The notes below the pieces were generated by a model. That model did not search any database. It was not told the origin of the DNA and saw nothing but the letters and a program-made list of their open reading frames with translations. Of a stretch of DNA of 64,000 bases, positions 20,421 through 63,910 are shown piece by piece (position 1 is the stretch's first letter; each line of letters opens with the position of its first letter). The DNA lies in assembly GCA_964592195.1 (NCBI GenBank), contig CAZQEI010000005.1, positions 5,689 through 69,688 of the forward strand, in the 5' to 3' direction. Both the position numbers and the translations under genes were made by a program. This stretch comes from an uncultured Gammaproteobacteria bacterium (GTDB taxonomy: Bacteria; Patescibacteriota; Patescibacteriia; UBA11705).

Positions 20421-20423
20421 ATT

Positions 20424-21036: not shown

Positions 21037-21040
21037 AAAG

Positions 21041-21340
21041 TTACAAATCATCATAAAGATCTCGAAATTCCGGATTCATACTTTTATTTAGTGCTATTTT
21101 TTTCGCCCTTGAACCAGCCTTAATTTGCCTTTCTCTATTTAAAGCTTCATAAGCACTATCACAAATCTCGAAGTAAACTAATTTATTTATATTATATCTT
21201 GCCGTAAACGAATTCGGATCAACCTTATTCTTGTGTTGCCAAACTCTTCCGACTAAATCATTTGAAAAACCTGTATATAAAACTGTATTTATATTATTTG
21301 TCATTATATACACATAGAATTGTTCAGGCCTATCATACAT
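21041..21340 (-). CDS. GIY-YIG nuclease family protein
   Basis: FYVYIMTNNINTVLYTGFSNDLVGRVWQHKNK fits the GIY-x10-YIG signature. The gene sits inside the hydrogenase operon. Confidence 0.8.
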   Translation of the reverse strand: MYDRPEQFYVYIMTNNINTVLYTGFSNDLVGRVWQHKNKVDPNSFTARYNINKLVYFEICDSAYEALNRERQIKAGSRAKKIALNKSMNPEFRDLYDDL

Positions 21341-21349
21341 ACTTGCCGA

Positions 21350-25763: not shown

Positions 25764-25879
25764 TTTAGGGACTTTTGGTTGTCAAAGTAGATGTATATAT
25801 TAACAAATATTATGGTTTTGTCAATCAAGCAAAAACCCCACTTTCGTGGGATTTTCGTGTATAGTTTCATCTTTTGAGA

Positions 25880-38186: not shown

Positions 38187-38684
38187 CTATATTAAGGACT
38201 TCAACGTCGCCAGCACATCCGGTAACAACGGCATTACAATTTTAGATATTTTAAGAAAAATGGAACACAGGATAGAATCGCGGGCTTGACCGAGCACCCA
38301 GGGATTGAATGGGAAACGACTGTAGAAGAAAGTTAAAACCGATAAGATCATTATACTCTCAACCAAACCAAGAACAAAGCCCATAAACTTGTTAATCGTG
38401 TGTAAAAACGGTAACAGCATAACGATTTGTAATATTTTTCCCAGTAACCAAAAGAAAATCCCGATTAACTTTGACACGATAAAATAGATAACTAGAAAAG
38501 CGAAAAAATTCGCCATATTAGTCGCGCCAAACATTTGACCGGCTAACAAAAAGTATTTACCCGCCACCACAATACCAATAAGCATGGCAACAATTTTTCC
38601 CGCGGATAAAATAAAACCGCGACGCAAGCCCAAAATGGCACCGGCTAAAATTAACGATAACAAAATGAAATCAAGGACGTTCAT
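38187..38684 (-). CDS. cvpA: CvpA family membrane protein
   Basis: A 165 aa, 4-TM protein with N-terminal MNVLDFILLSLILAGAILGLRRGFI typical of CvpA. Confidence 0.65.
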   Translation of the reverse strand: MNVLDFILLSLILAGAILGLRRGFILSAGKIVAMLIGIVVAGKYFLLAGQMFGATNMANFFAFLVIYFIVSKLIGIFFWLLGKILQIVMLLPFLHTINKFMGFVLGLVESIMILSVLTFFYSRFPFNPWVLGQARDSILCSIFLKISKIVMPLLPDVLATLKSLI

Positions 38685-38703: not shown

Positions 38704-39675
38704 TCAAATACTTGGGTCTGGTTTCCATTTAAATAATATCCCTGCTGTCCCAAAGGCTGACATAGTCGGTCTCAAACCATCTTGACATAAAACAATTTCA
38801 TCATTCACCACGCCAACGCCCACATGATCTCTTCGCCTGACATCAAAAGCTCTAAAGAAACCTATATCACTACCTGGTTTATGAAAATGTTCTGGTCCAC
38901 GAACCATAATGAAATATAGTAATTCCTCAATCGTTACTCCATATTTTTCCCAAATTTTTTTTGCACTAGTCATCGATGGTTGTAATAGATTTAAATGACT
39001 AGCAAAATTTTGTATTGCTTTTGCACGAAGGAAAAAATCATCTTCCGTTAAACTTGACCCCTCCACAATGTTATTGCTAATCAACATCCAACCAGGAGAT
39101 AACGATTTCGTGTCCGGAATGTTTAGTCTTAAAATATCTGGAAAATTTCCGGCATTGAGAGAAGTGCTTTGCATTCTCATAGTCACTTTTCTATCAAGTA
39201 AAAAGCGACACATATCATAAAGTTTCGGAGACTCAGTTAATTTACCAGCAACAACCATATAACGAGGAATATAGACCAAGCTCATGTTCAATTCTTTTGC
39301 TCTTTTCAACTCGCCAACATTAAATGGAATCTCGGGTATCCCGGATCTTTCTTCCAAAAATAAATATTCATCAAATTTACTGCTACAAAACGCATTATCT
39401 TCTGGTCCGTAAACATTATCATGACCCATAATTTCTCGAGCTAATTCAAATTGCATCTCCCACGGGGAGCCAAACTCACGCCTTTTAACAGGATTATAAG
39501 CCTCTAATTTTTCTTTTATAATTCTAATCTCATCCGGACTCAAAGGCTTACCATTCTTAGCTTTCACCATGGCATGCAGTTGCTCCATTAAATCAGCGTA
39601 AGAAAGAGATTCTTCGCCTTTTGATAAGGTTAAATCAATTTTTGGTTCACCGATGGCCATATTTATTTTTCCCAT
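38704..39675 (-). CDS. N-module family protein A1 (type-A C-terminal domain)
   Basis: MAIGEPKIDLTLSKGEESLSYADLMEQLHAMVKAKNGKPLSPDEIRIIKEKLEA, then SLVYIPRY, GWMLISNNIV and a C-terminal GILFKWKPDPSI. The probable true start is the internal MAIGEPK Met. Confidence 0.55.
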   Translation of the reverse strand: MGKINMAIGEPKIDLTLSKGEESLSYADLMEQLHAMVKAKNGKPLSPDEIRIIKEKLEAYNPVKRREFGSPWEMQFELAREIMGHDNVYGPEDNAFCSSKFDEYLFLEERSGIPEIPFNVGELKRAKELNMSLVYIPRYMVVAGKLTESPKLYDMCRFLLDRKVTMRMQSTSLNAGNFPDILRLNIPDTKSLSPGWMLISNNIVEGSSLTEDDFFLRAKAIQNFASHLNLLQPSMTSAKKIWEKYGVTIEELLYFIMVRGPEHFHKPGSDIGFFRAFDVRRRDHVGVGVVNDEIVLCQDGLRPTMSAFGTAGILFKWKPDPSI

Positions 39676-40637
39676 TTGAATAAAATACCGGCTTGATGAA
39701 AAGAATCTGTGGCAGATAATAATTGCTCTTCAAATAGCACTAATTCTTTATGTGCCACGCCAATCCCAAACTGATCACCGTGTTCTTCACCATATGCACG
39801 AAAAACACCTTTATCACTACCGGACTTCCAAACTTTTTCTTCTCCACGCACAATGATAAAATATAATAATTCAACTATTGTTGGACAATGTTTTTTAAAA
39901 GTATCATCAATGTCAATATTTGAGCCTATTCGTTCATCAACGGACAAACGACTAAAAAACTCTTTCAATCTAAAAGCCCTCTGAAATTGATTTTCCTCAG
40001 TTAAGTCTGTGTTTTTCACTATTTGATTACTTATCATCATCCAACCAGAGGTTAAATGAATATAAAAATCTTTTTCTTTCACACTGCTTATGATTTCAAG
40101 CAAATTCCCAGCATTTATAGATCTGTCCATAAATCTCATTGCTTTCTGCATTTCTAAAAGCCTCAAGACCATGTGTACAAGCGATGGGATTTCTACATTT
40201 TTTTTCCTTACAATAATTCTTCCCGGCTTATACACCAAACACATATCCATTTCTTTTGCTCTTTTCAACTCATCCGCCGTAAATGGAATTTTATCAATAC
40301 CATACTTCATCTCGGCCTGCATATATTCGTCAAACTCGTTACCATAACAAAAAACATTTTGCTCAGGTCCATAGACATTGCCCTCGCCCATGATTTCTCG
40401 AGCAACATTAACTTGATCTTCCCAATCTCCACTAATTTCTTTTTGATTTCCAGGATCAAAAGACTCTAGTTTATCTTTAATGATTCTAATTTCATCCGGA
40501 CTCAATGGCTTACCATTCTTAGCTTTCACCATGGCATGCAGTTGCTCCATCAACTCGGCGTAAGAAAGTGATTCTTCGCCTTTTGATAAAGTTAATCCAA
40601 TTTTTGGTTCTCCGATGGCCATAATTATTTCTCCCAT
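39663..40637 (-). CDS. N-module family protein A2 (type-A)
   Basis: Colinear tandem paralog. MCLVYKP, GWMMISNQIV and a C-terminal GILFKWEK. Confidence 0.55.
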   Translation of the reverse strand: MGEIIMAIGEPKIGLTLSKGEESLSYAELMEQLHAMVKAKNGKPLSPDEIRIIKDKLESFDPGNQKEISGDWEDQVNVAREIMGEGNVYGPEQNVFCYGNEFDEYMQAEMKYGIDKIPFTADELKRAKEMDMCLVYKPGRIIVRKKNVEIPSLVHMVLRLLEMQKAMRFMDRSINAGNLLEIISSVKEKDFYIHLTSGWMMISNQIVKNTDLTEENQFQRAFRLKEFFSRLSVDERIGSNIDIDDTFKKHCPTIVELLYFIIVRGEEKVWKSGSDKGVFRAYGEEHGDQFGIGVAHKELVLFEEQLLSATDSFHQAGILFKWEK

Positions 40638-41554
40638 TTAAATAACACACCGCTATGTTTCAAATTACTGGTATTTGACAATGCATCGTTAACTAAAAAA
40701 CTTATTTCATTAAAAAATACACTTAAACAAAATGAATCCCTATGTTCTTCATCAAAAGCCCGAGCGACAAATCTATCTGATCTAGGCACCCACATATTTT
40801 TCACCCCTCGCACAAGACAAAAATACAAAAGTTCGGCCATTGACGGACAGTGTCTTTCCCATATAGCATTAGGCAAAACAGTATTTCCGGCTTCATATTC
40901 TTTGAATCTTAACCAATCATGACCAAAAAACGCCATTTTTTCAGCCCGCTCTCTGAAATTACTATCTTTGTCATCAGTTTTTTTTATTATATTTTTTGAA
41001 AGCAACATCCATCCTGATTTAAACATTGAATTTTTATCAATATTTTTTAAAACATCTTTATCCAACCCACAATTGATAGTTACTCCCAAATTCTTTGCCA
41101 CTTCCATAAAAGATTCAAGTCTGGGATTATACATTTCAACATTTGAAAATCTAAATGCCCAAGGTTTATAGACTAAACACATATCCGCTCTTCCCGCCAG
41201 CTCAAGGTCAAATTCAGAAAAAGGAATATCTGGGATATTATTAAGTATCTTCGTGTTTAACGCTGATGCAATTACATCTGGTCCATACACATTTTCCGCT
41301 CCCAATATTTCTCTGGCAATATTTACATCCGCTCGATCAAATTCATATTGATTTGATTTATCAGGAACAAAAGCTTCTAATTTTTCTTTTATAATTCTAA
41401 TCTCATCCGGACTCAAAGGCTTACCATTCTTAGCTTTCACCATGGCATGAAGTTGTTCCATCAACTCAGCATAAGAAACTGATTCTTCGCCTTTTGATAA
41501 TGTTAAATCAATTTTTGGTTCACCAATGGCCATAGTTAAATAAATTTTTCCCAT
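40625..41554 (-). CDS. N-module family protein A3 (type-A)
   Basis: Colinear tandem paralog. MCLVYKP, GWMLLSKNII and a C-terminal GVLFKWEK. Confidence 0.55.
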   Translation of the reverse strand: MGKIYLTMAIGEPKIDLTLSKGEESVSYAELMEQLHAMVKAKNGKPLSPDEIRIIKEKLEAFVPDKSNQYEFDRADVNIAREILGAENVYGPDVIASALNTKILNNIPDIPFSEFDLELAGRADMCLVYKPWAFRFSNVEMYNPRLESFMEVAKNLGVTINCGLDKDVLKNIDKNSMFKSGWMLLSKNIIKKTDDKDSNFRERAEKMAFFGHDWLRFKEYEAGNTVLPNAIWERHCPSMAELLYFCLVRGVKNMWVPRSDRFVARAFDEEHRDSFCLSVFFNEISFLVNDALSNTSNLKHSGVLFKWEK

Positions 41555-42453
41555 TTAAACATAACGCCGGAACCTTTAAGCTCATCCTTATTAGTTAACT
41601 TTTCTTCATCAAAACCAAATAACTTATTCCCCGTCATCGCCAATCCCAAATAATGTATTTGCGATTTGTCGTATCCACGAGCTTTAAAGATCTCTTGCCC
41701 GGACAGCATTAATCGCTCTTTTCCCAAGGTCATCATTACAAATAATAATTCGGGCAAAGACATAACATGATTTTGCCACAATCTTTTAGCCAGATTTTCA
41801 TTCATGGCCTCATTGTACCCCATATCCAATCTATTAACCGCGAAATCCTGCAAACATGCTGCTTGTTGAAAATAGTTCTTGCCACCCACAGAAAGTTGTA
41901 AAACATTTTTTGATACTAGCACCCAGCCAGAATGCATCATATTACTCGGAACTAAATTTGGATTATTTTCCGCCCAACTAAAAGCATCAAAACTTTCAGT
42001 TACCAATTGACTCATAGCTTCAAAACTTACTCCCAGAGTTTCGCTCAGTCCAAACTGTTCCGGTGTTGGTTTATAAATCAAAAACATTCCACACTCACTG
42101 GCTTTTTGCAATTTCTCTTCGGTAAAACGGATGGCGGGTAATTCAGCGATGGGCGCCAAACTCCAACGTGTAGCAATTTCATCTGGTCCAATAAAATTTT
42201 CTCCAAACAAACCTCTCGCCACCTCCATCTGCGCTTCCACCCTGGCGCGCTTTAACATTTTTTCATGATTAAATCGGTTCTCTTTATATTTATCAAATAA
42301 TTTGCAAACATAAGCTACATCATCTGGATCCAGATGAACACCTTTTCCCTTGGCCAATACCAACGCATGAAGTTTTTCTGTTAACTCCGCGTAAGACAGA
42401 TGATCATCGTCTTGCGATAAGGTTAAATCAATTTTGGGTTCACCGATTGCCAT
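41536..42453 (-). CDS. N-module family protein A4 (type-A)
   Basis: Colinear tandem paralog. MFLIYKP, GWVLVSKNVL and a C-terminal GVMFKWEKFI. Confidence 0.55.
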   Translation of the reverse strand: MAIGEPKIDLTLSQDDDHLSYAELTEKLHALVLAKGKGVHLDPDDVAYVCKLFDKYKENRFNHEKMLKRARVEAQMEVARGLFGENFIGPDEIATRWSLAPIAELPAIRFTEEKLQKASECGMFLIYKPTPEQFGLSETLGVSFEAMSQLVTESFDAFSWAENNPNLVPSNMMHSGWVLVSKNVLQLSVGGKNYFQQAACLQDFAVNRLDMGYNEAMNENLAKRLWQNHVMSLPELLFVMMTLGKERLMLSGQEIFKARGYDKSQIHYLGLAMTGNKLFGFDEEKLTNKDELKGSGVMFKWEKFI

Positions 42454-42455
42454 AA

Positions 42456-43361
42456 TTATTTAGACCATCGAATTATACATCCATTATCAATAAATGCTCT
42501 CTCACCATCAAAAAAAGAATTATAATCATACACCAATATACTTCCATCATTCTCTATATCGACCAAAGCGGTAAAATCCCCTTCTTTTCTATCATAAGCT
42601 AATGAGGTTAAAATACCCGGGATATTTTCTTTACCTCTCAAAACATAATAATAAAGGAGATCAACGACAGATAAACAAAACTCTGGTAAAACATTTTCCG
42701 TCTGAGGGCTAAATCGTTCTTTGAAATGGGCGGTAGCAAATTCCCAAATTTTCGATGACCTATCCAAGGTCGTGCATTTTTTTGTACCGGGAACAATATC
42801 CTTGCTGATTAACACCCATCCACTTAGCATACTGGACGAATCTTGAACTCTTTTACTAATATCATCCCACTTTTCATTTCCCCAACGTAAATTTATCCCA
42901 ATTTCATGCGCCTTCTCACATAATTCTTTCAAATTTGGATAGCTAACATCTTCGCCTCCTACATTAATTTTATTAGGTCGAAAAACTAAGCACATGCCAG
43001 CTGATTCTGCTCTTTTTAATTCTTCCACTGAATATGGAATATCTAAGACCTCTTGTGGCCAAGGTGATTTCCATCTTTCGACAAACTCCTGTGGGCCTAA
43101 CACATTTTCCTTCCCCAAAATTTCTCTAGCCTGTTTCAATTGACGTTTAAGATTTTTAGATAATTGATCTTCTGAATCAACCACTTCATTAGGAGTAAAC
43201 GCTTCTAATTTATTTTTAATTAATCGAATCTCATCTGCCGTCAATGGTTTACCATTCTTCGCTTTCATTATGTCATGCAACTCAGACATCAAACCAGCGT
43301 AGGAAATTTCTTCCTCGCCTTTGGATAAAGTTAAATCTAATTGTGGTTCTCCTCCCACCAT
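42456..43361 (-). CDS. N-module family protein A5 (type-A, most divergent)
   Basis: MVGGEPQLDLTLSKGEEEISYAGLMSELHDIMKAKNGKPLTADEIRLIKNKLEA, then MCLVFRP, GWVLISKDIV and a C-terminal GCIIRWSK. Confidence 0.5.
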   Translation of the reverse strand: MVGGEPQLDLTLSKGEEEISYAGLMSELHDIMKAKNGKPLTADEIRLIKNKLEAFTPNEVVDSEDQLSKNLKRQLKQAREILGKENVLGPQEFVERWKSPWPQEVLDIPYSVEELKRAESAGMCLVFRPNKINVGGEDVSYPNLKELCEKAHEIGINLRWGNEKWDDISKRVQDSSSMLSGWVLISKDIVPGTKKCTTLDRSSKIWEFATAHFKERFSPQTENVLPEFCLSVVDLLYYYVLRGKENIPGILTSLAYDRKEGDFTALVDIENDGSILVYDYNSFFDGERAFIDNGCIIRWSK

Positions 43362-45090: not shown

Positions 45091-45750
45091 CTATTTGCCA
45101 TGGATAATAACAACGAACTCGCCTTTACTTTGCTTTTCCAGTTCCGGAATGATAGTTTCTAACGTACCGCGATAGGTAGTTTCAAATTTTTTCGTTAACT
45201 CACGACAGACAACGATTTGACGAGTCGGTTCTAAATATTTTTGCATTTCTGTTAAAGTTTTAATAATGCGATGGGTGGACTCATAGAAACAGGTGGTGCA
45301 ATCAGAATCGCGAATGGTTTCAAAGTTTTTTGTTTTGCCCTTGTGGGGCATGAAACCTAAAAATAAAAATCTGTCTGTTGGAAAACCGGAAATACTCAAA
45401 GCGGAAATCACTGCGCAAGCGCCGGGAATGGTTATTACCTGCCAACCTAATTTCACTGCAGACTCAACCACGCGACCACCGGGATCGGAAATACCTGGAG
45501 TGCCGGCATCGGAGACATAAGCAACATTAGAATACAAATCTAATAACTGCTCAATATTCTCAATCTCAGTATGTTGATGAATGGTCACCAACTTATTTTT
45601 AAACTCAAAATGCGCCAAAAGCTTAGAAGTTTGGCGGGTATCTTCGCAAAAAATCACCTCCACGGATTTTAAGGTTTCCAATGCGCGAGGGGTTAAATCG
45701 CCAAGGTTACCAATAGGTGTGGCGACGATGAATAATTGTTTTTCGGTCAT
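45091..45750 (-). CDS. rsmI: 16S rRNA (cytidine1402-2'-O)-methyltransferase
   Basis: LFIVATPIGNLGDLTPRALETLKSVEVIFCEDTR tetrapyrrole-methylase-fold signature. The likely start MTEKQ is at 45748-45750. Confidence 0.85.
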   Translation of the reverse strand: MTEKQLFIVATPIGNLGDLTPRALETLKSVEVIFCEDTRQTSKLLAHFEFKNKLVTIHQHTEIENIEQLLDLYSNVAYVSDAGTPGISDPGGRVVESAVKLGWQVITIPGACAVISALSISGFPTDRFLFLGFMPHKGKTKNFETIRDSDCTTCFYESTHRIIKTLTEMQKYLEPTRQIVVCRELTKKFETTYRGTLETIIPELEKQSKGEFVVIIHGK

Positions 45751-45916
45751 ATGGATGTCTACCCTTCGAGGCTCCTGTTTCACAGGAGGCACCTCAGGGT
45801 GACATTTAAAGTATATTTTAATGTTGTAATTATATCAAATGTATAAAATATAAGCAATTTTCAGCTAATTTTCGTGTTTTTTGATCAATGATCAATGGTC
45901 AATGTTACATGACCAC

Positions 45917-45951: not shown

Positions 45952-47508
45952 TTACATGATCGTTTACAATCAATAGCTCTCGTAGAGTCTTTTGACTCCG
46001 AGATGTCTATAACCAACTCCAAGCCCCCACCGAACTATGCACATTGGAGGTGCCGCAGGAATGCGATCGGGGGCAGATGCAGGGTGGACATGCCAAAGTA
46101 TAGGCTCGTAACAAAAACCGCGAGGAGAGAAGCGGTTTGAGCTGAAGCTGTGGACAACCCCACCCTAATTCGTCAAAACTCTCGCTCGAGCCACAAGGTT
46201 CGCGAGATAATTGACTGCTCCTCGTCAGATGAGCCGCAACCAACGGGACTCATGGCGAGGCACGCGCACGTATCTTGGTATGGAGTAAGCACCGCGGTTG
46301 ACCCTGCTGGTAACAGGGTGGTATATAACCGGCGGAAGCGCTACATAGTACAAGAGGTGCGGTGAAATCGAGCCCGATTCGTCGGGATTTCGATACGAGC
46401 TCCTGGAGCCCCCACCCAACAACACACCTGGAGGTGGCGCGTAATGCGTTTGGGGGCAGACAGCGGGTGAGACAGACTTGTCTCGACCAATTGACTACTC
46501 AAAGAAGTGAAAGATCCTCGACGAGAAAGTCTCACCCAAAGTCGTCGATTTCTCTACCGCAAGGTGGAGATCGAAGATACGCTGACTCGGACGATCGCGG
46601 TCCTGTGGCCCTCCCGCCCCTCTGCTGGTGGCAGAGATGGACAATCGTTCGAGCGTACCCCGGCCCTAAGCTCGGCTAACCCTGCGCCTCGCGGTGCACG
46701 GTCAAGCAGCTTCCGTGGCAGTCCTCACGAGGCTCGTTCGGTCGCTCGCTGGAGTCCTCTTCAGGATAAACCAGCCCGCCGCGACTGCGCCCCAGACTTC
46801 CGTCTGTCGGGGCTTACGCCTGTGGGGTTCGCACGCCACGCGAGGTGTCCGGGGATGCGAAGTTGATCGTTCTGCGAAAGTGGAACGTCGACATAGATCA
46901 CCACGCAACTCTCCCAGCAAATCCAGGGAGACTACCCGCCTTGAGTCTTTTGGGCCACGTGTGGACGAGTTAAATCGTCCTGTACAAGCCTCAGTTCGAA
47001 ACTGGCTCTAAGGCGGGCACGAAATTGACCACTCTTCGGAGTGTGTTGATACAGATCATCCGAGGGCTCGCAGCTCACACCCACTCGATGTGGGAGTCAG
47101 CTCTGAGCTCGTCAACGTGAGCACCAACGTCACTGGCGGTTCTTATCCGTCCAGAATCTGGTCAGCCTGAAGTACAAGGGCTGGTTGGAGGAGGGGTTCA
47201 CGGTGATGTCCATGGTGTCCGAACAATCGGACTGACCATATCAGAACGCCACCCATCGTCGCATGCGCAACGATTCATCGAACTCGGACATCCGAGACAC
47301 AGCATGACGCGACGATCGGGCGTTGATCCCCAGTTCACATCTGGTTCAGGCCGCAAACAAAAGCGACTGACCGATAAGCTGGGGACACGAATTCAGCCTT
47401 TGCTGATGGACAAGATGACTTCGGTCGTCGCGTTCTCGCAAAGTGTTGATAGATCTCAAGCTCCGACGTTGAACACCTCACGGTGAACAACGTCGGAGCA
47501 CTTTTTTT
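45952..47508 (+). ncRNA. Candidate large (about 1.55 kb) GC-rich structured non-coding RNA of unknown class, or a non-coding foreign insertion
   Basis: There is an abrupt shift to GC-rich sequence with no frame free of stops. The short ORFs are Arg/Pro/Ser-rich in all six frames. It is bounded by a consensus promoter and an intrinsic terminator, and carries an internal ~65-nt repeat (46024-46090 and 46409-46476). Confidence 0.45.
47461..47508 (+). terminator. Rho-independent terminator
   Basis: An 11-bp stem ctccgacgttg/caacgtcggag with an inner sub-hairpin cacc-tcac-ggtg, followed by cacTTTTTTTaTTT. Confidence 0.7.
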
Positions 47509-47674: not shown

Positions 47675-48166
47675 CTATTCCCCGACTTTCGTAACTTCCC
47701 ATCGTTCACCATTCCAGATATAACAATCATTTATTTTCTTAAAAAAATCTTGACATTGTCCATCACCTGAGCCGATCAAACCACCACTGGCATTACAAAG
47801 CTTTTGTCCATCATCTTTATAAACAATATCAGTGTAACAATCTTCACAATTTGGTTGTCCGCCAAGACTAAGATATACAGTTGCTCCGGAATAATTGCAA
47901 CGGAAGTCTGGAATTAAATAATTCTCCACAGTTGAATCAGCTTGCATGATTTTCAACCAATCTGGTAAAGCATTATTATTGACAGCTGTTTCGTTTCCAT
48001 TCACGGACGAAGAACCTCCGCTAGTTAAATCAGTGATTGATTTTTTCAAAGCTTCCACTTCCGCTTTTTTTTGTTTGGCTTGATTCACCAAATCCTCACC
48101 TTTTTGCCAATCCGAGTTGGCCTCATTCTTATATTTATCAACTTCAGTTGTAATATTATTCCACAA
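47675..48166 (-). CDS. hypothetical Cys-rich protein (163 aa)
   Basis: 8 Cys in the C-terminal half (CNYSG...CEDC...CNASG...CQDFFKKINDC). It may be the C-terminal part of a gene split from 48212-48397. Confidence 0.3.
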   Translation of the reverse strand: MWNNITTEVDKYKNEANSDWQKGEDLVNQAKQKKAEVEALKKSITDLTSGGSSSVNGNETAVNNNALPDWLKIMQADSTVENYLIPDFRCNYSGATVYLSLGGQPNCEDCYTDIVYKDDGQKLCNASGGLIGSGDGQCQDFFKKINDCYIWNGERWEVTKVGE

Positions 48167-53594: not shown

Positions 53595-54470
53595 CTACCA
53601 AACAATCAACATTCCTCCCACAATAATTAACGCTATTGCCATAACACGTTTCACCATTGTAGTCCGAGACATCGGTTCTTTGAAAAACTTCGAATGGAAG
53701 AAACTTAACAGTAAGATTAACAAGAAAACTAACAGGGGCTTGGTTGCCAGAATGGCACTCGGTAATGTTACCACACCGGTTGAAATAGCGGCCATGAAGC
53801 TTAACAGGGCGCCGGCTGAAATTAAGGCAGACAAGACAATGTGCCACACCCCGGCCTTGGCTTTTTCAATCAAATGCGGATGATGAAATATTATCATTAA
53901 TACAGGAATAATCAAACCACCTACACCAAACCAAAACATACTGGTATAAAAGTCAACTTCAGAGGTAATAAAGCGCATGAACAAATTTCTCAAAGCAAAA
54001 AATATCATTGCCCCAAAAGCCAACAGATGTCCAAAACCGATTTTCTTGCCATGCTTTTCATGTACCACCAAATACGCTCCCAAAACAATTATCCCGATCC
54101 CCAAATAACGTAGCCAGCTCAAAGATTCATTGAAAAACAGACAAGCTAATAACGCAATCACCAATGGCTCAGTCGCTAAGATAACTGTAAAGGATGAAAG
54201 TTTTTCAACCCGCGATGCTTGATAATCCAACCATACCGCACCGGAATAAATTATACCGGCAATTAATGCCGCAAACAATACCGGTAACGATACTGACAAA
54301 TCAGCGTGCATGATTGAAGATAAACAAATAAAAATCAAACATGCGACGACACAAAAGATTGTCATTGCCAGACGAGGATCTCGCATTTCTTTTTTAATTA
54401 CGTGAACATCAATGATCTCCACGATTGACCAGCCAAAGACGGCAATCAAAGTGAAAATTAACCACAACAT
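53595..54470 (-). CDS. EamA/DMT-family transporter
   Basis: A 291 aa, about 10-TM protein with duplicated EamA-like halves. Confidence 0.6.
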   Translation of the reverse strand: MLWLIFTLIAVFGWSIVEIIDVHVIKKEMRDPRLAMTIFCVVACLIFICLSSIMHADLSVSLPVLFAALIAGIIYSGAVWLDYQASRVEKLSSFTVILATEPLVIALLACLFFNESLSWLRYLGIGIIVLGAYLVVHEKHGKKIGFGHLLAFGAMIFFALRNLFMRFITSEVDFYTSMFWFGVGGLIIPVLMIIFHHPHLIEKAKAGVWHIVLSALISAGALLSFMAAISTGVVTLPSAILATKPLLVFLLILLLSFFHSKFFKEPMSRTTMVKRVMAIALIIVGGMLIVW

Positions 54471-54474: not shown

Positions 54475-54993
54475 TTATTCCACGGTTATTTGATTAGTTT
54501 TCGGGTTAACATACACAAACAATCGAATATCAGATTTTTTTCTAGATTGAAAATTCGCCACTGCAGTAGTTTCCGTGACTTCACAATCTTGACCGAAACA
54601 AACTCCTTGAGAATAGTGCTTTGACAAGAAGCTGGGAGTATAGTTCAAAGTAAAATTCCAATCAGGCGAAATGGAGATATCTACTGGTCCGATTTGCTCG
54701 CCTTCATCACAAAGAAAATCACCGTTCAAATCTGCGCATACTGTGGCAGTTCTATTTGATTCATTATAATAAACTCCAAAGGAAAACGGCACCCTCCCGT
54801 TCACCTTCTCGGAAGCTTCAGCTTTTTGCTTAGCAAGATTTAACAACGAGACATATTCATCTGCCGCTTGGCGAACTGCATAGCGCTCAGCCACCTTTTG
54901 CCAAGTTAAAAACGTCATAGCGCCAACTAATATTACCAAAACAACGACTAACAATACGTCGATTGAATAAAACTTTTTTAGATATTTTTTCAT
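54475..54993 (-). CDS. hypothetical exported/membrane-anchored protein (172 aa)
   Basis: An N-terminal TM/signal anchor and a Cys-containing extracytoplasmic region. Confidence 0.3.
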   Translation of the reverse strand: MKKYLKKFYSIDVLLVVVLVILVGAMTFLTWQKVAERYAVRQAADEYVSLLNLAKQKAEASEKVNGRVPFSFGVYYNESNRTATVCADLNGDFLCDEGEQIGPVDISISPDWNFTLNYTPSFLSKHYSQGVCFGQDCEVTETTAVANFQSRKKSDIRLFVYVNPKTNQITVE

Positions 54994-54997: not shown

Positions 54998-55951
54998 TTA
55001 TTTTTTAAAAGCTATCGTAAAACGAAAACCAGTATGATCATTTCTTGTATTATCTCGAACAACATTAATATTTCCAGCGCCTTCTCGACCACCAACCACA
55101 AGATTTTGCCAAGTATTTAAACCTAAAGTCGAGGTTCTTTCTTCCCCAAGAGTTTGCGTTAAGGCTGGATAAACTTCACACAATTGTCGGAACAATAATG
55201 CTGGCGTTAATATCACATCAAAATCTCGATATTTTAATTTTTTTTCATTCCAGTCATTACAAATCATTTCTTTAATTTTTGCTAATATTATATTCACCTC
55301 ATCAATACATAATTTAAACCGCCCATATCTAGAAGCCGTTGGTGGTAACCCATCACACCAGGTTATTATTGACTCGACTATATCTAGGTTTTTCGAAAGA
55401 CCTTCTTGTGAACCATAATGTTTTTCTTGAAATGTGGTAACCGAGGGTTTTTGAATACTCTCCGTAACAAATAAATCATATTTTTGTGCCAGTTGTTCAG
55501 CTTCTTTTTTCATTATCTCAAAAAACACCTCTGATCCAATTCTATTGCCATCTAATCCAGTCTGTTTCATGCTGGTGCTTCGATAATTCACCAAGCCTTT
55601 CTTTGAATCTTCTTCAGTTTGTTCTACTGGATACATTTTATTAAACCATTCTGCGGTTAATTCTTCGGGATGTATTGGTTCTGAGATAAACGGCTTATTT
55701 TCACCAAAAAATATATCTTCAATCGCTTTTATCTGTTTACCATATTTCATTTCCTTTGGAGAAGAATCTTCAACCGTTTCACCAAATGCCTGGACAAAGC
55801 GCAAAGCTTCCAAGACCTGTTCTGGTTTAGGATTTTTGCCTTGAGACTTTATTCTTTTTGCCAAGTCAAACAAACCCTCGTTGATTTTAATTTGATCATT
55901 GGATTGGGAGGGTGTGAGGTTAGCGGTTAATTTTTCAACGTTATTTAGCAT
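54998..55951 (-). CDS. N-module family protein B1 (type-B C-terminal domain)
   Basis: VEKLTANLTPSQSNDQIKINEGLFDLAKRIKSQGKNPKPEQVLEALRFV, then IKAIEDIFFGENKPF, WFNKMYP, VILTPALLFRQL, REGAGN and a C-terminal GFRFTIAFKK. Confidence 0.55.
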   Translation of the reverse strand: MLNNVEKLTANLTPSQSNDQIKINEGLFDLAKRIKSQGKNPKPEQVLEALRFVQAFGETVEDSSPKEMKYGKQIKAIEDIFFGENKPFISEPIHPEELTAEWFNKMYPVEQTEEDSKKGLVNYRSTSMKQTGLDGNRIGSEVFFEIMKKEAEQLAQKYDLFVTESIQKPSVTTFQEKHYGSQEGLSKNLDIVESIITWCDGLPPTASRYGRFKLCIDEVNIILAKIKEMICNDWNEKKLKYRDFDVILTPALLFRQLCEVYPALTQTLGEERTSTLGLNTWQNLVVGGREGAGNINVVRDNTRNDHTGFRFTIAFKK

Positions 55952-55956
55952 GATAA

Positions 55957-57204
55957 TTAAATTTCACGATTTTTTGTAAAATCTCTTTTTCGATCCTCAA
56001 GCTCATTAATTAAATGCTCCATTTCATAAAATTTAGTATTTGCTGAAATTACAGAACCTAACATCGTGTTCATTCTTGCTGTATGCGCTAATCTTTTCCT
56101 CATCGTTATTAAAATTTTATCAATTTGAATTACTGCATCTTTAATAAAGTCATGCGCTTCTTTCTCTTTATAAAAAACTATTGACAATCTAAAAAACTCA
56201 GCGTGTTTATCATCCATAGTTTTATACCACACTGACCCAGCACCGCCATTCTCCTGATCTTTATCTTCTTCGTAACCAATAAAGCCTCCAATAGTCAAAT
56301 AAGCCTTTTCGTTTTCGATCTTGGTGGAAGTCAAAATTCTATAAATTGATTGCGACAATTCCGGTTTATCCTCCATAATTTGCCTGGTAATTACAGCCGG
56401 CGTGCACATCACGCGAAATGGTGGTATTTTCAAGCCTTGCTCTTTCCACTTTTTTATTAATTCATCTTCTATCTTTTGCACTAATGTCAACCTAACATCA
56501 TCTACACCTAAAAAATATCTGGTTTTATTTTCTCCAAATGCTTCATTAATATAATCATTGATCGGATCAATCACTAATCCACGACGTTTATCATCCTGTT
56601 CAATTGGCATTGCTAATTCCGAATACACCATTTCCCAATCCGACATTTCCGTCACTTCATTTTTCATGGCACGAACAAAGTCATCCATGAAAGTTTTAAC
56701 TAAACAATCTTTGGGTTTATAATTTTTCTTCAACTTCTTTTTAAACCACTCAATCACAGCATATTCTTTTCTTGCAACACTAAGATCAATATTGCAAATA
56801 TGTGGTCGAAAATTCAATCTCCCAGCTTTAACATCTTCATCGCGTTGATGATCTTTATCCACATTGGGAAACATTTTTTCAAACCAAGCATCGTTAATCT
56901 CTTCCGGCTTGGGTGGTAAACAAACGTATGGTTCATCAATGCCGAAAAATTGATCTTGAATCGCCTCAATATATGTTCTAAATTTTTCTTTTGGATCAGC
57001 TTCCTTAGTCAAACTATAAGATTGCTCCACTAACCGCAAAGCTTCCTTTATTCGTTCACTATCCCGAGCACCGCCTTCTTCTCGAATCCTCTTCGCCAAC
57101 GCTCGCATATCTTCATCAACCCGAACCCGCTCCACGGCTTGCGCTGGAGTTTGATTAGCTGTGAGTTTTTCAATATGATTTGGCATTGTAATTATTGCTC
57201 CCAA
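55957..57204 (-). CDS. N-module family protein B2 (type-B)
   Basis: IEKLTANQTPAQAVERVRVDEDMRALAKRIREEGGARDSERIKEALRLVEQ, then WFEKMFP, VMCTPAVITRQI, ENGGAGS and FFRLSIVFYKEK, plus an extra C-terminal tail. Confidence 0.55.
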   Translation of the reverse strand: MGAIITMPNHIEKLTANQTPAQAVERVRVDEDMRALAKRIREEGGARDSERIKEALRLVEQSYSLTKEADPKEKFRTYIEAIQDQFFGIDEPYVCLPPKPEEINDAWFEKMFPNVDKDHQRDEDVKAGRLNFRPHICNIDLSVARKEYAVIEWFKKKLKKNYKPKDCLVKTFMDDFVRAMKNEVTEMSDWEMVYSELAMPIEQDDKRRGLVIDPINDYINEAFGENKTRYFLGVDDVRLTLVQKIEDELIKKWKEQGLKIPPFRVMCTPAVITRQIMEDKPELSQSIYRILTSTKIENEKAYLTIGGFIGYEEDKDQENGGAGSVWYKTMDDKHAEFFRLSIVFYKEKEAHDFIKDAVIQIDKILITMRKRLAHTARMNTMLGSVISANTKFYEMEHLINELEDRKRDFTKNREI

Positions 57205-58352
57205 CTTTTATTTCTATTTTTTGTAATATCTCTAATAGCTTTCCCCCTTAAAATCATATTTTCTAAATTCAAGTATTTCAAATATTGAGGATTTTGATAC
57301 ATATTTGAAATTGATGACAATTTTTTATCATGTTTTTCATGTTTCTTTTTAATTTCATCTATTTGTTTCTCTTCCTCAATTGAAAGTGGTCTATCTTTAT
57401 AAAAAACAATTGAAAGTCTAAACATAGTAAACTGGGGGGCATCCTTAACATTCAAAGTTCCAATTGCCCCAGCCCCGCCAAGATCAACCCCACCAGTAGT
57501 TAACCATTTTGTTGTCTCTTTACCAGACTCATCGAGTAAAGGTGTTTCGCTCAGAACACTAAAATCCAATTTAGACATATTGGGATTTTGTTCCATAAAC
57601 TGCCTAGAAACAGATACTGGAGTTAATAAAACTTGAAAAGCAGGAATTTTAAAACCCGACTTCTTAAATTTTTTCACAATATTATCTTCCATACTTCGCA
57701 AAAGACCATAAAGTTGGATTAATAATCCACCCTTTGCTGCTCTTGCAATTGAAAAAACATTATCGTCAATTTTAATATCCGCATTTGAAATCAAAAGTCT
57801 GCTTGTAAAAACAGATTCACTCTCTTTCAAAAATTCCGCTTCAGCTTTTATCGATCGAAAATATGCTCCCATTACCGAATGTTCTTCAGAAACAGATTTA
57901 CTAGACCTATCAAGTCTAGATAGAAGCTTACTCACTATTCCAAACTTAGCTCGTTTATTTTCCGATGGTGGTCGAAAGCAAATTCTTCCCGCCGTAAGAT
58001 CCTCAGGTCGTTGGTGGTCATTATCCACATCAGGATACATCTTTTCAAACCATTCATCAGTTAAATCTTCAGGTTTTGGAGGAATAGAGAAAAAAGGCTC
58101 CTTATTTCCAAATAATTCTTCCTGAATAACTTCAACATATGGTAAATACTTTTCTCTTGGATCTTCTTCCCTAGTTAAACTATAAGATTGCTCCACTAAC
58201 CGCAAAGCTTCCTTTATTCGTTCACTATCCCGCGCACCGCCTTCTTCTCGAATCCTCTTCGCCAACTCTCTCAAATTTTCATCAATCTGAATCCGCTCCA
58301 CGGCTTTTTCTGGAGACAAATTAGCGGTTAAATTTTCAGCGTGATTTTTCAT
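57192..58352 (-). CDS. N-module family protein B3 (type-B)
   Basis: Its N-module is nearly identical to B2 (ENLTANLSPEKAVERIQIDENLRELAKRIREEGGARDSERIKEALRLVEQSYSLTREEDPREKY). VLLTPVSVSRQF, LGGAGA and FRLSIVFYKDR. Confidence 0.55.
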   Translation of the reverse strand: MKNHAENLTANLSPEKAVERIQIDENLRELAKRIREEGGARDSERIKEALRLVEQSYSLTREEDPREKYLPYVEVIQEELFGNKEPFFSIPPKPEDLTDEWFEKMYPDVDNDHQRPEDLTAGRICFRPPSENKRAKFGIVSKLLSRLDRSSKSVSEEHSVMGAYFRSIKAEAEFLKESESVFTSRLLISNADIKIDDNVFSIARAAKGGLLIQLYGLLRSMEDNIVKKFKKSGFKIPAFQVLLTPVSVSRQFMEQNPNMSKLDFSVLSETPLLDESGKETTKWLTTGGVDLGGAGAIGTLNVKDAPQFTMFRLSIVFYKDRPLSIEEEKQIDEIKKKHEKHDKKLSSISNMYQNPQYLKYLNLENMILRGKAIRDITKNRNKSWEQ

Positions 58353-58366
58353 GTATAAAATTCAAA

Positions 58367-59344
58367 TCAATTCTTGTAAAATATTACAGAGATCCTAAAA
58401 CCAGCGCCTGAAGTGCCCTTATCCATAGTGTCAATATTACCAGCACCACCATTAGGGGTACCGACTACCAAGCATCTTTCAGTTTTATTCCCATCTTTAT
58501 CCAATAAATCTGTAGACGTTGTTTCCCAGAAGCTTGATTTTGTCATCTCTAGATTTTCCCCCATAATTTGTCGTTGAATAATTGCTGGAGTGCAAATTAC
58601 ATCAAACTTCGGAACTTCCAAAAGATTTTCAAGCCACGCTTTTCTTATTTTGGACTTTAACATTCTTAGTAACCTATTATCAATTGTTTCTCGAGAAAGC
58701 ATTGATCGATGGGTAGCGCGAAAATTAGTACAATCTTTAATAAAAGGAACTAAAACATCAGCGTTGCTTGATCCTTGATGATCATGGTCTGGGTCATTTA
58801 ATCCATAATGTTGCAATACACCGGATTTTTTTATTAACGGTTTACCAATTGTTTCAGTCAAAACCAATTCACAGTTGTTCATTTGTCGAGCTTGCGTGCG
58901 GATTGAACGAGCAAAGACACTAAACCAAGTTTCCCCTGGGAATGACTGGCAAATTTCTTCAGCAGGATCAAAAAAATACCTAGGTCTAAAATTTGTAACT
59001 TTACTTTTTGGATCTTGTTCTATCGGATACATTTTTTCAAACCAAGCATCAGTCATTTCATCCACATGAAAAGGAATGGAAACAAAGGGTTTATTTTCAC
59101 CAAACAACAATGGTTCAATAGCCTCAATATGCTTACGATATTTTTCACGAGGATCCGCCTCCACCAATGTTTTTTCATATTCCCCCACCAATCGCAAAGC
59201 CTCCACTACTTGCGCAGGAGTGGCTTTCTTGCCTTGAGCTTTTACTCGACCAGCCAAATCCATCAAACCTTCGTTAACAGTAACTTGATCAATGGCGCGG
59301 GCGGGCGTGGGACTAGCGGTTAATTTTTCAAAAGATGATTTCAT
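58367..59344 (-). CDS. N-module family protein B4 (type-B)
   Basis: FEKLTASPTPARAIDQVTVNEGLMDLAGRVKAQGKKATPAQVVEALRLVGEYE, then VICTPAIIQRQI, NGGAGN and GFRISVIFYKN. Confidence 0.55.
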   Translation of the reverse strand: MKSSFEKLTASPTPARAIDQVTVNEGLMDLAGRVKAQGKKATPAQVVEALRLVGEYEKTLVEADPREKYRKHIEAIEPLLFGENKPFVSIPFHVDEMTDAWFEKMYPIEQDPKSKVTNFRPRYFFDPAEEICQSFPGETWFSVFARSIRTQARQMNNCELVLTETIGKPLIKKSGVLQHYGLNDPDHDHQGSSNADVLVPFIKDCTNFRATHRSMLSRETIDNRLLRMLKSKIRKAWLENLLEVPKFDVICTPAIIQRQIMGENLEMTKSSFWETTSTDLLDKDGNKTERCLVVGTPNGGAGNIDTMDKGTSGAGFRISVIFYKN

Positions 59345-59655
59345 TTAATAAGTTTATGAAATTTATTTTTTAATTTCCCTTTTTTACCAACGAATAATTT
59401 GTCTACTTCTGCAATCATTTCACCTAGACCAGCGTTTAATTCCTTTATGACTTTATCAAATAATTCAGCGTCGATAATTTTCGTAGTATCTTCATATTGC
59501 CCGACTAATTTCAAAGCCTCTGAAACTTGTTCTGGCGTCGCCTTTTTACCTTGTAACTTAACTCGCCTAGCCAACTCCATTAACTTCTCGTTTACATCTA
59601 CTTGATTAACAGCTTTTTCTGGAGTCACATTGGCAGTCAATTTTTCTTGACTCAT
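59341..59655 (-). CDS. N-module-only family member B5 (104 aa, truncated)
   Basis: MSQEKLTANVTPEKAVNQVDVNEKLMELARRVKLQGKKATPEQVSEALKLVGQYEDT with no C-terminal domain. Confidence 0.5.
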   Translation of the reverse strand: MSQEKLTANVTPEKAVNQVDVNEKLMELARRVKLQGKKATPEQVSEALKLVGQYEDTTKIIDAELFDKVIKELNAGLGEMIAEVDKLFVGKKGKLKNKFHKLIK

Positions 59656-60461
59656 ATTATTAATACCAATCGCAGAAATTCAATTATTTGTTGATTAAAT
59701 AAAACAAAAATCATTGTGGCCGGACAGAGGAAAACGGCCATAGGCAACGCACCGCCGAACTGTTTCCATTTTATCGCTAACAAAACAATGGCCACAATTG
59801 CTCCAACAATATACGCGACAAAAATTGTAAACACCAAACCTGTCCACCCGACCATTATGCCTATCAACGCACCCAATAACATATCACCATCCCCCACCCA
59901 TCTACCTTTGGAAATCGCATATTGAAAATAATAGAACAGAAAACCGACACCACCAGCCGCGAGCATGTTGGCGACTTGAAACCAGGTAAATCCAGTAACC
60001 ATCAAATTTAAAAAGAAAGCAATCGGTAGCATGATGTAGATCAAACTATCAATAATCGCAAACTCTTTCCAATCAATGACCATTATTACCAACAACACAG
60101 AAACAAAAAGAAAATCTTTAACCAACGATAAATAATCAAAACCAATAACTAGTTGTTCCCAGTGAAGTAATAAAATAATTTCAAACAAAATCGCAGTGAC
60201 TATTTCAACAATTGGATATTGCCAAGAAATTTTCGCTTTACAATGACGGCACAATCCTTTCAACCAAACAAAACTTAGAACCGGAATCAATTCAAAGAAA
60301 CCCAAAACATTTTGACATTTGGGACAATGCGATCGCGCGCGCTTCCAAATCGATTCGCCTTTGGGTAAGCGGCAAATTAAAACGTTTAAAAAACTGCCGA
60401 TTGCGAGTCCTAATATTATAGTGGCTATTGACGCTAAAATAATCATAAAAATATATTTCAA
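59652..60461 (-). CDS. pilD: prepilin peptidase (A24 family, type IV pilin leader peptidase/N-methyltransferase-like)
   Basis: N-terminal CxxC...CxxC (CPKCQ...CRHCK) and the catalytic Asp region GRWVGDGDMLLGALIG, with an about 8-TM layout. Confidence 0.8.
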   Translation of the reverse strand: MKYIFMIILASIATIILGLAIGSFLNVLICRLPKGESIWKRARSHCPKCQNVLGFFELIPVLSFVWLKGLCRHCKAKISWQYPIVEIVTAILFEIILLLHWEQLVIGFDYLSLVKDFLFVSVLLVIMVIDWKEFAIIDSLIYIMLPIAFFLNLMVTGFTWFQVANMLAAGGVGFLFYYFQYAISKGRWVGDGDMLLGALIGIMVGWTGLVFTIFVAYIVGAIVAIVLLAIKWKQFGGALPMAVFLCPATMIFVLFNQQIIEFLRLVLII

Positions 60462-62154: not shown

Positions 62155-62844
62155 TCAATCAAAGAATTGCAACTGAGAAAAAACGGTGGATAAATCACCA
62201 ACACGACAATCACCAGACAACTCAAATATTTTTTGTTTTTTAACATCAAAGTAAACAATCTTATTCACAGGGCAGCTAACATCACGTCCATTTTCATAAT
62301 TAAAAACAGGATATTCGTTTATCGTTTGAGATGCAAATAATTTACTTATCGCTTCTTCACGTGTCGGTGAAATCGTATTCCAACCGTAATCAAACACCGT
62401 ACACTCATTTAAGTTGCACGGCTCGCCGTTAAACCTCCAACTTTCCAAATACGTGCTTTGGTTACCGGTAAACATTCGCAATTGCGCGGGGGGAGAATTT
62501 TGACCAGTGCGCAATTCAATCGTGCCATCGGCTAACTCTACGACTTGATAATTTTGTGCAGTATTAACTTTCAAACCAAAACCAGCAGGATTATTAACAT
62601 AGGAGAATTCACCGTCAACCACCACAGGTTGCTCAACTTGTTTTTGCTTTACCACCTGTTGCCAGTTTTGCCATTGACTGGTAATTTCCCCTACTTGAGA
62701 TCTTGTTTGCCAAAACATATAACCGAGCAAAATAAAACCACCTACTAGAAAAATTATTATTACCCCCAAAATCAAGGTTAATCGTTGTTTACGTTTATAA
62801 TCATTAATTTGCTTCATACTAAACTGTTCTAACTTTTTTAACAT
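62155..62844 (-). CDS. hypothetical membrane-anchored protein (229 aa)
   Basis: An N-terminal TM helix and Gln/Trp-rich linker. No recognisable family. Confidence 0.3.
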   Translation of the reverse strand: MLKKLEQFSMKQINDYKRKQRLTLILGVIIIFLVGGFILLGYMFWQTRSQVGEITSQWQNWQQVVKQKQVEQPVVVDGEFSYVNNPAGFGLKVNTAQNYQVVELADGTIELRTGQNSPPAQLRMFTGNQSTYLESWRFNGEPCNLNECTVFDYGWNTISPTREEAISKLFASQTINEYPVFNYENGRDVSCPVNKIVYFDVKKQKIFELSGDCRVGDLSTVFSQLQFFD

Positions 62845-63910
62845 CCTCTTTAGCGTGACTCAAGCATCTTTCACCTAGTTCGTTCAATCGAACTATTAAA
62901 GATTTACGTTCACTTTTATATCTTTGATATTCAAAATTGGTTTCCGGTTCATCGCCCTGCGCAAAAGTTTTCTTTATTTCACTGTATTTATAATTATGAG
63001 CAGAAAAATCTTTTTTTATTTGTTCCAGGCGATCAATGTCCTCTGAATAATCAAAATATTCCATTAATGTTTTCAAATAACTAAACAGTAATTCAAACCA
63101 ACGGGTTCTCCATTTATTATTATACGCCGGATCTTCAACATCATAATCCATAGTATTTTCCACATTTAACGGGGAGGTAGAACCAGACATTGCCACCAAT
63201 TTCTTTAATCTTTCCAAAACCACGGGATCTACCGGTTTCTTTTCCATATGCAAATGTGGATCATCGTTGAATGATAAATATTTTTCAACCTGTTTAATCA
63301 GGGCCTGAATTTCGGTTAATTGCGTTTCCGTGGTTTCAGGAATTGGGCCACGTTGCCGATGTTTAATCGGCGACTGGGCAGGATCCAATTGTTGTTCGTC
63401 TTCGAAGGACATATTTTTATGTTTTAATTGCCAATTCAACGGATTGTTTTCAATATAGGCGCGAATTTTATTTAATGATTGTTCATTGCGAATAATGTGA
63501 TCGTAGAATGATTTTTGCCACACGAATTCATTATCACCATTTTCCCGAAAATATTTGGTAACGCCAATTTTAAAACCACGAACAATCGATGAAATGGATT
63601 TTGACCATTTTGTTTGCCATGGTAGGGAACAAACATTTTTGTTCCCTACGTTATGGTCAAAATATAATATTCCATGAATATGATCTGGCATTATAATATG
63701 ATAATCCAATCGACATTCGGGAAAATGTTTTGGTATATCCAACCAACAATCACGCACAAAAATACCATAATCATTTAAAACCATTTCACCATTAACAATA
63801 TTACCAAACCAAAACAATCTATTTTTCGTACAAATCGTTATATAATACCATCCCGCCTGCGAATAATCCCACCCACGCAATCGATTTAATTTTCGATTTT
63901 TCCCCTCCAT
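62819..63910 (-). CDS. REP-associated tyrosine transposase (RAYT)/IS200-like HuH transposase domain protein with long C-terminal extension
   Basis: The N-terminal about 140 aa carries the IS200/Y1 fold signatures GWDYSQAGWYYITICTKNR and the HuH motif MPDHIHGIL. It is followed by an unrelated charged extension of about 220 aa. Confidence 0.6.
   Translation of the reverse strand: MEGKNRKLNRLRGWDYSQAGWYYITICTKNRLFWFGNIVNGEMVLNDYGIFVRDCWLDIPKHFPECRLDYHIIMPDHIHGILYFDHNVGNKNVCSLPWQTKWSKSISSIVRGFKIGVTKYFRENGDNEFVWQKSFYDHIIRNEQSLNKIRAYIENNPLNWQLKHKNMSFEDEQQLDPAQSPIKHRQRGPIPETTETQLTEIQALIKQVEKYLSFNDDPHLHMEKKPVDPVVLERLKKLVAMSGSTSPLNVENTMDYDVEDPAYNNKWRTRWFELLFSYLKTLMEYFDYSEDIDRLEQIKKDFSAHNYKYSEIKKTFAQGDEPETNFEYQRYKSERKSLIVRLNELGERCLSHAKEDVKKVRTV

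Follow-up and report, generated by a model that had tools for sequence, protein, structure and literature searches.

The 64-kb stretch of contig CAZQEI010000005.1 analysed here (hereafter the window) carries a tandem array of genes for paralogous proteins, termed type B, in which a short N-terminal module (N-module) precedes a C-terminal domain (C-domain) of ~250 residues. The window has a GC content of ~37% and almost all of its genes lie on the minus strand. Its housekeeping genes encode ATP synthase, enolase, PGK, GAPDH and iPGM, as well as MetRS and a DNA ligase that were read from the sequences. This gene content is typical of a small-genome bacterium belonging to the candidate phyla radiation (CPR; Patescibacteria).

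The array is part of a tightly packed run on the minus strand, headed by a gene for a strongly hydrophobic, pilD-like bifunctional prepilin peptidase of the A24 type (59652-60461), which matched the Pfam families A24_N_bact (PF06750, E = 1.2e-32) and Peptidase_A24 (PF01478, E = 7e-11), both above the curated cut-offs. The next gene on the minus strand is B5 (59341-59655), whose 104 residues comprise an N-module and the first part of the type-B linker helix, ending in a lysine-rich tail of unrelated sequence. It is followed by B4 (58367-59344), a full-length type-B protein of 325 residues made up of an N-module and a domain with the predicted fold of the formylglycine-generating enzyme (FGE) and C-type lectins, and then by the paralogs B3 (57192-58352, 386 residues), B2 (55957-57186, 409 residues from the ATG; a mechanically assigned start, the TTG at 57204, probably overextends it) and B1 (54998-55951, 317 residues). 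B2 and B3 are sister paralogs and the sole sharers of a helical C-terminal extension of ~65 residues. The array is closed by a gene for a pseudopilin-like protein of 172 residues (54475-54993, minus strand) with a degenerate class III signal (KK/FYSIDVLLVVV...), after which comes an EamA transporter gene (53595-54470). B5 overlaps both of its neighbours, the pilD-like gene and B4, by ATGA, which makes co-transcription with pilD likely; the other junctions measure 4-14 nt.

This arrangement of an A24 peptidase gene, a 104-residue N-module open reading frame (ORF) and four full-length type-B genes is the one given in a preliminary description of the locus, and the motifs quoted there for type B (WFEKMYP, TPA..RQ, GGAG and GFRxSxxFYK) were recovered in the alignment of the B proteins. 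The paralogs scored between E = 1e-31 and 1e-37 against the hidden Markov model (HMM) of the family, so that their paralogy is far beyond chance. A sixth member, B6 (18190-19182, minus strand), is also full-length and lies, as had been claimed, within a hydrogenase operon, between the delta and alpha subunit genes of a NiFe group-3b-like hydrogenase (a HydD/ShyD-like gene at 19184-19948 and a HydA/ShyA-like gene at 16909-18180). The hydrogenase set as a whole (16909-23144) is interrupted twice, by B6 between delta and alpha and, between the gamma-like and delta genes, by a pair of short ORFs for membrane proteins (19929-20420 and 20424-20885), which are paralogs of each other and have no Pfam match.

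The C-terminal domain and its hypermutated relatives

An AlphaFold2 (AF2) model of B4 built from a 45-sequence alignment reached a predicted local distance difference test (pLDDT) score of 89.2 and a predicted template modelling (pTM) score of 0.83. The fold matches listed with this model were PvdO (8.6), CarF (8.0), TvpA (7.8), PorK (7.6), OvoA (7.5), SenA (7.4), EgtB (7.2) and SUMF2 (7.2), among which TvpA is a variable protein of a diversity-generating retroelement (DGR). Foldseek returned weak but concordant matches to SenA, CD23 and mincle. The C-domain is accordingly modelled as an FGE-sulfatase/C-type-lectin (CLec) fold. Curated sequence families such as PF03781 and DUF1566 did not capture it: no Pfam match was found at E <= 1 for B1, B2 and B4, only noise was found for B3, and neither NCBIfam nor PADLOC gave a match for the type-B proteins. 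Cysteine and histidine were absent from all invariant or near-invariant columns of the 45-sequence alignment, and B6 has no cysteine at all. An enzymatic role of the FGE, EgtB or PvdO type is unlikely, as neither a catalytic cysteine pair nor a metal-binding histidine is conserved. The lack of conserved catalytic residues, together with the fold and the family, suggests that the C-domain is a ligand-binding scaffold rather than an enzyme.

An exhaustive profile search returned 90 proteins, with E values of 1e-27 to 1e-48 for family members. Some 60 clusters among them matched profile positions ~70-325 and form an unannotated family from CPR bacteria, in which the C-domain is always placed at the extreme C-terminus and is preceded either by a coiled coil or by an AAA_5 (MoxR-like) ATPase (P0009, P0014, P0015, P0018, P0038, P0042, P0069 and P0093). 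A scan of species-representative genomes yielded one relative, in a metagenome-assembled genome of Candidatus Magasanikbacteria, and a scan of viral contigs yielded none. A hydrophobic segment was detected in none of the type-B proteins, nor in those of two further arrays of the window described below (types A and C), and no carrier of the N-module has a signal peptide or such a segment; the type-B proteins are predicted to be soluble.

Three of the AAA_5 fusions were found next to a DGR. The gene of P0014 follows a VWA/CobT_C gene and adjoins genes for bAvd and a reverse transcriptase (RT; RVT_1). A copy of its last 115 nt is located 427 nt downstream, and all 19 differences between the two fall on adenines of the template copy. 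P0093 and P0015 share this layout, in the order target, template repeat (TR), bAvd on the minus strand and RT on the plus strand. Mismatches between TR and variable region (VR) were of the A-to-N kind in 19 of 19 cases for P0014, 11 of 11 for P0093 and 13 of 15 for P0015, and in all three the VR covers the last ~38 codons. When the C-termini of the B proteins were aligned with P0014, its VR (..VGxSxxGGAG....GFRLSVVF) mapped onto the GGAG/GFRxSxxFYK tail of B1-B6. The equivalent segment of B4 (58370-58474, minus strand; residues ~291-325, GTPNGGAGNIDTMDKGTSGAGFRISVIFYKN) is the one onto which the TR adenine positions of P0014 map. Adenine-specific TR/VR pairs in family members and the correspondence of the VR to the B tails place the type-B C-domain, as judged from sequence, in a bona fide DGR-target family.

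This assignment agrees with what is known of DGRs in CPR bacteria, which are among the groups most enriched in these elements and whose DGR targets typically lack recognisable domains and behave as CLec fusions of modular, C-terminal design (PMC8144416). Midasin/AAA proteins bear one of the CPR VR classes that remain unclassified (PMC5758913), and MoxR-vWA systems carry DGR-diversified FGS domains (PMC7159879). At L001 a CobT_C gene that also has a weak VWA match lies upstream of the gene for the fusion protein, and at L107 the fusion is encoded downstream of a gene for 699 residues with a faint CobT_C match.

Within the window itself, none of the B genes has a TR-like repeat of its 3' end, and the best tblastn hit of the RT and Avd of L001 had E = 0.33. 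The five VR-equivalent tails show no DNA similarity to each other except for 29 nt between B2 and B3. The missing RT and TR and the unrelated tails point to diversity that would be carried here as a fixed germline set of five different binding domains; the type-A array described below would be a second set of this kind. Other loci show a comparable state. L103 and L104 hold a tandem pair of family members, and L107 holds three; the 3' ends of these three agree at ~77%, and their mismatches are of every type rather than adenine-specific. The family thus occurs either as one DGR-hypermutated copy or as several fixed paralogs, and the window shows the second mode. Sets of two or three C-domain paralogs per locus without a DGR span 5088-11213 of L107, where one copy is an AAA_5 fusion, and 1-1724 of L103. 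A solitary 23S_rRNA_IVP ORF (16411-16791; PF05635, E = 1.8e-22) lies just after the hydrogenase large subunit gene; PF05635 is the Avd-related superfamily. A decayed DGR beside B6 was ruled out, as only this Avd-related ORF is present, with neither an RT nor a TR.

The surroundings of the homologs were compared as well. At L099-L101 the homolog directly follows GAPDH. P0007, a relative from Hainich groundwater, sits immediately after GAPDH, and PGK, enolase and iPGM are nearby as in the window; pilD is found at none of these loci. At L002 (Magasanikbacteria) the homolog is followed, a few genes on, by an EamA transporter gene, again as in the window. The site downstream of GAPDH appears to be the original position of the family.

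Exchange between B2 and B3, the N-module and the B5 stub

The preliminary description had reported an almost identical N-terminus of ~60 residues in B2 and B3 and ascribed it to recent duplication or gene conversion. The extent of the identity was overstated, as the N-modules are 78% identical over 60 residues, but one block of ~32 residues is indeed identical. At the nucleotide level, a tract of 97 nt (gene nt 85-181, encoding LAKRIREEGGARDSERIKEALRLVEQSYSLT; 57006-57102 in B2 and 58172-58268 in B3, both minus strand) matches at 94 of 97 bases, synonymous sites included, as against 203 of 288 (70.5%) in the rest of the first 385 nt, across which the alignment is gap-free. Third codon positions agree at 36 of 40 in a wider 120-nt segment around the tract (gene nt 85-204) and at 27 of 62 further downstream (gene nt 205-390). 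The corrected binomial P value of the tract is ~6e-9, and none of 20000 column permutations reached the observed maximum. The mid C-domains of the two proteins share only 21% identity at the protein level. This pattern indicates that otherwise old paralogs recently underwent gene conversion over a short tract (~97 nt) of the N-module. Conversion was thus borne out, whereas a recent duplication of the whole module was not, the duplication being old.

The N-module (residues ~5-60) is always placed at the extreme N-terminus. A 23-sequence alignment showed the near-invariant pattern L-T...VNE.L...P..V..AL.LV..Y, and in the AF2 model the module forms two long helices (residues 14-36 and 43-59). It is not confined to type B. 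A search of the six-frame ORFs of the window with an HMM of the first ~70 residues returned 11 carriers: B1-B6, a 797-residue beta-repeat protein headed by the module (35681-38074, minus strand; E = 4e-26) and the type-C array of four beta-repeat proteins with a divergent module (MSPFEQKLTGN..) at 3961-9616 (minus strand; E = 2e-12 to 4e-9; ORFs 8387-9616, 7022-8260, 5213-6904 and 3961-5121). One of the type-C genes (7022-8260) is split by an in-frame TAA at 7535-7537 into the ORFs 7535-8260 and 7022-7534; the joined length and C-terminal motif agree with those of the paralog at 8387-9616. Near this array stands a stand-alone C39-like ORF (3224-3763) whose QSCG..C and His motif appears intact by eye, with no ABC transporter in view.

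Outside the window, the N-module recurs alone on leucine-rich-repeat (LRR) proteins (P0073 and P0088), on beta-repeat proteins and on a domain of ~170 residues without assignment, the LRR-type carriers coming from one or two related genomes. Seven of the foreign N-module proteins were traced to their source, and all seven fall on just two NCBI contigs, so the module is restricted to a lineage and occurs there in clustered copies. Searches of Pfam, NCBIfam, PADLOC and PDB sequences gave no match for either the B proteins or the N-module. In metagenome contigs, a degenerate DNA pattern based on PExVxEAL[KR]LV picked out 96 stretches, none of which encoded a true N-module when rescanned with the HMM, and k-mer-seeded homolog searches started from B4 alone, from the N-module alignment or from the 45-sequence alignment returned almost only self matches. 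Its presence on at least three unrelated C-terminal domains argues that the N-module is an independent portable domain and not a property of type B, which reframes B5.

B5 matches the N-module HMM with E = 1e-33, and its module is nearest to that of the adjacent B4 (64% amino acid identity). The match to the family HMM extends as far as profile position 74, where the type-B linker has only just begun, and the last ~30 residues match nothing. No remnant of a C-domain was found at B5 in any frame, by which a frameshifted full-length gene was ruled out. Among the 90 profile hits it is the sole short protein consisting of the N-module only, and it forms a singleton cluster. Between the two options offered earlier, a spare cassette or a decayed copy, the B4-like module, the stop at position 74 and the uniqueness of B5 favour the latter. 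The best reading of B5 is that of a 5' duplicate which was truncated but kept an intact, translationally coupled ORF and now encodes a free N-module. It may modulate a putative docking of the N-modules.

Type-A array and other features of the window

A second array, type A, consists of five paralogs of ~300-324 residues (38704-43361, minus strand), probably with a helical N-terminal part and a C-type-lectin-like fold. Their N-termini are patterned like those of type B, but comparison with hhalign gave a probability of 18% between the type-A and type-B N-modules and of 1.5% between the C-domains, too low to demonstrate homology of the two types. The type-A N-termini are highly conserved (MAIGEPKIDLTLSKGEESLSYAELMEQLHAMVKAKNGKPLSPDEIR), and the three closest copies are almost identical there, suggesting homogenisation as in B2/B3. 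A gene for a CvpA (Colicin_V) membrane protein (38187-38684) is located directly downstream of this array.

A GC-rich island of ~1.5 kb (46000-47500), with 54-66% GC against ~37% in the window, has no long ORF on the minus strand and is flanked by a gene for 233 residues (45091-45792) and a DUF6970 gene (47675-48166). Neither Rfam (at the gathering score or at E <= 0.1) nor a plasmid search gave a match, and the island may represent inserted foreign DNA or a large RNA with structure. Beside the ATP synthase operon, two tandem paralogs of 355 and 362 residues (24696-26968) show weak matches (E ~7e-6) to the catalytic domain of CsoSCA-like carbonic anhydrases. The ORF at 62819-63910 encodes 363 residues, of which the N-terminal half corresponds to a REP-associated tyrosine/IS200-like Y1 transposase (NCBIfam, E = 1.5e-13) and is followed by a long unrelated C-terminal region. 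A scan of the window for promoters and terminators gave counts at the level of shuffled sequence.

Readings of the locus and comparison with known systems

We consider it likely that B1-B4 and B6 represent old paralogous copies of a soluble protein with two domains, from a CPR family that is DGR-hypermutated in related genomes and is kept here in several fixed copies. Several points weigh against this reading. Ligand binding is deduced from fold and family, and the most diverged part of the paralogs is the mid C-domain (15-32% amino acid identity), not the VR-equivalent tail (36-50%), so that the location of the differences does not specifically support a repertoire of binding sites. The search for a DGR covers the 64-kb window of an 81.9-kb contig, and a remote element could still act on one paralog. 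It is nevertheless unlikely that one or more of the B genes are active DGR targets served by an RT, Avd and TR outside the window. Such a state would be in line with the three homologs that are bona fide targets, the Avd-related four-helix-bundle gene 1.4 kb downstream of B6, the richness of the B1 tail in AAT codons and the ability of DGRs to act on remote targets (PMC7159879, PMC5758913). However, no RT or TR lies within 64 kb, and the VR-equivalent regions of the five genes, apart from the short B2/B3 stretch, have no nucleotide similarity, so that one TR cannot serve them all. Moreover, the tails of B2 and B3 are followed by the ~65-residue extension, and in the three positive cases the cassette directly adjoins its target.

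The ATGA overlaps that link pilD, B5 and B4 and the pseudopilin-like gene at the end of the array also leave some room for a pilus link, under which the array would serve a module resembling type II secretion or a type IV pilus and the B proteins would be PilD-dependent or pilus-associated adhesins, expressed together with the peptidase and a minor pseudopilin. Lectin-fold domains are plausible adhesins, and at L102 a T4SS_pilin gene lies three genes away from the homolog. We nonetheless give this explanation little credence. The B proteins have no class III or Sec signal, no hydrophobic segment and no N_methyl or pilin match; their maximal 12-residue Kyte-Doolittle value in the first 36 residues is <=0.64, as against 3.7 in the pseudopilin-like ORF. 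B6 resides in a hydrogenase operon, and in relatives the fusion partner is a cytoplasmic AAA_5 ATPase. Linkage to pilD is seen at no homolog locus among L001, L002 and L099-L107, and pilus genes are absent from them but for the one at L102. The pseudopilin-like protein itself, despite a hydrophobic N-terminal helix, has Lys for Gly at -1 and Asp for Glu at +5, and its N-terminal part gave only sub-threshold NCBIfam matches to GspH and a prepilin-peptidase-dependent protein (E = 0.007-0.0095). The functional link to the prepilin peptidase and type IV pili implied by the preliminary description is tempting but unsupported by the data here; the adjacency to pilD looks specific to this genome and looks like co-transcription in a compact genome rather than pilus function. 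Equally improbable, in our view, is a cleavable leader or export signal, by which the N-module would be cut, for example, by the C39-like peptidase beside the type-C array and its cargo would be secreted effectors or adhesins, comparable to the cargo of polymorphic-toxin or bacteriocin systems. The place of the module at the extreme N-terminus before unrelated C-terminal domains would suit a leader, as would the Peptidase_C39-like match (PF03412, E = 6e-7) of the ORF directly downstream of the type-C genes and the CvpA gene after the type-A array. On the other hand, the 23-sequence alignment contains no double-glycine-leader motif (GG, GA or GS with upstream Leu/Glu) and no conserved pair of small residues at the end of the module. 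Neither an ABC transporter nor other export machinery was found in the window, and the paralogs are not interspersed with small genes of immunity type. The module is paired with binding folds (CLec, LRR and beta-repeats) rather than toxins, and the module is structured as a helical pair in a confident model (pTM 0.83).

Under the favoured reading of fixed, DGR-target-type paralogs, the array would have arisen by ancient tandem duplication at the conserved site downstream of GAPDH, and B2 and B3 would later have exchanged ~97 nt of the N-module by gene conversion. The C-domains would be ligand-binding modules of differing specificity, and the B proteins would act as recognition modules in the cytoplasm, as the AAA_5-fused relatives imply, or leave the cell by a non-Sec route. 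The N-module would dock these proteins to a common partner or to each other. A more far-reaching proposal, which we put forward tentatively and regard as rather doubtful, is that the N-module serves as a hitherto undescribed handle for targeting or adaptor contacts, marking out a large, hard-wired set of receptors within a single narrow CPR lineage. Its basis is the presence of 11 module-bearing genes in 64 kb, five type-A genes of similar design and the clustering of copies on two contigs of related genomes. Lectin-fold, LRR and beta-propeller domains would then plug into one common partner, which could work through homotypic assembly, a non-Sec export route or the neighbouring C39-like peptidase. 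The lineage would use paralog arrays and short-tract conversion instead of the DGR hypermutation of its relatives, and the free N-module protein B5 would be a regulator or competitor of the docking step.

The DGR target proteins of CPR bacteria are almost entirely unannotated. The locus assigns a predicted FGE/C-type-lectin fold to one such target family, in two modes (a hypermutated single copy or fixed paralogs), and its portable N-terminal module connects proteins of the lectin-fold, LRR and beta-repeat kinds within one lineage. Were it a docking or export handle, it would mark, speculatively, a recognition repertoire that these small-genome bacteria might employ toward hosts or phages.

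Among known systems, a close likeness is to the DGR variable proteins with an FGE-type CLec fold (TvpA of Treponema denticola, PDB 2y3c; TaqVP; Mtd). As in these, homologs of the B proteins have a C-terminal VR, adenine-specific TR/VR differences and adjacent bAvd and RT genes, and the type-B tail (GG..G....GFR...) resembles the CLec VR scaffold. Type B differs in having no Pfam FGE-sulfatase or DUF1566 signal, in the absence of an RT and TR from the window copies, in the presence of five diverged paralogs in place of one hypermutated gene, and in the N-terminal helical module, which is new. TvpA is a surface lipoprotein, whereas the type-B proteins carry no lipoprotein or secretion signal. 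Multi-copy DGR CLec cassettes likewise form tandem arrays of CLec-type target-family genes. Their VRs, however, remain close to one TR in sequence, while the tails described here are unrelated in DNA and the paralogs are ancient.

The AAA_5 fusions of the family, three of them with adjacent DGR cassettes, resemble the Midasin/AAA DGR targets of CPR bacteria (Wu et al. 2018, PMC5758913) and the MoxR-vWA ternary conflict systems (Kaur et al. 2020, PMC7159879). The window proteins differ from both, having an N-module in place of the ATPase, no vWA partner in the window and no PADLOC match. For the N-module, comparison can be made by analogy only, with the effector-associated domains (EADs) and Death-like adaptors (Kaur et al. 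2020, PMC7159879), which are also small helical terminal modules shared by otherwise unrelated proteins of one genome and to which the near-stand-alone B5 could be likened. Unlike for EADs, no effector enzyme bearing the N-module was seen, and homotypic interaction is hypothetical. Overall, the locus joins a new N-terminal module to a CLec-fold family of the DGR-target type, which is present here as an array of paralogs.

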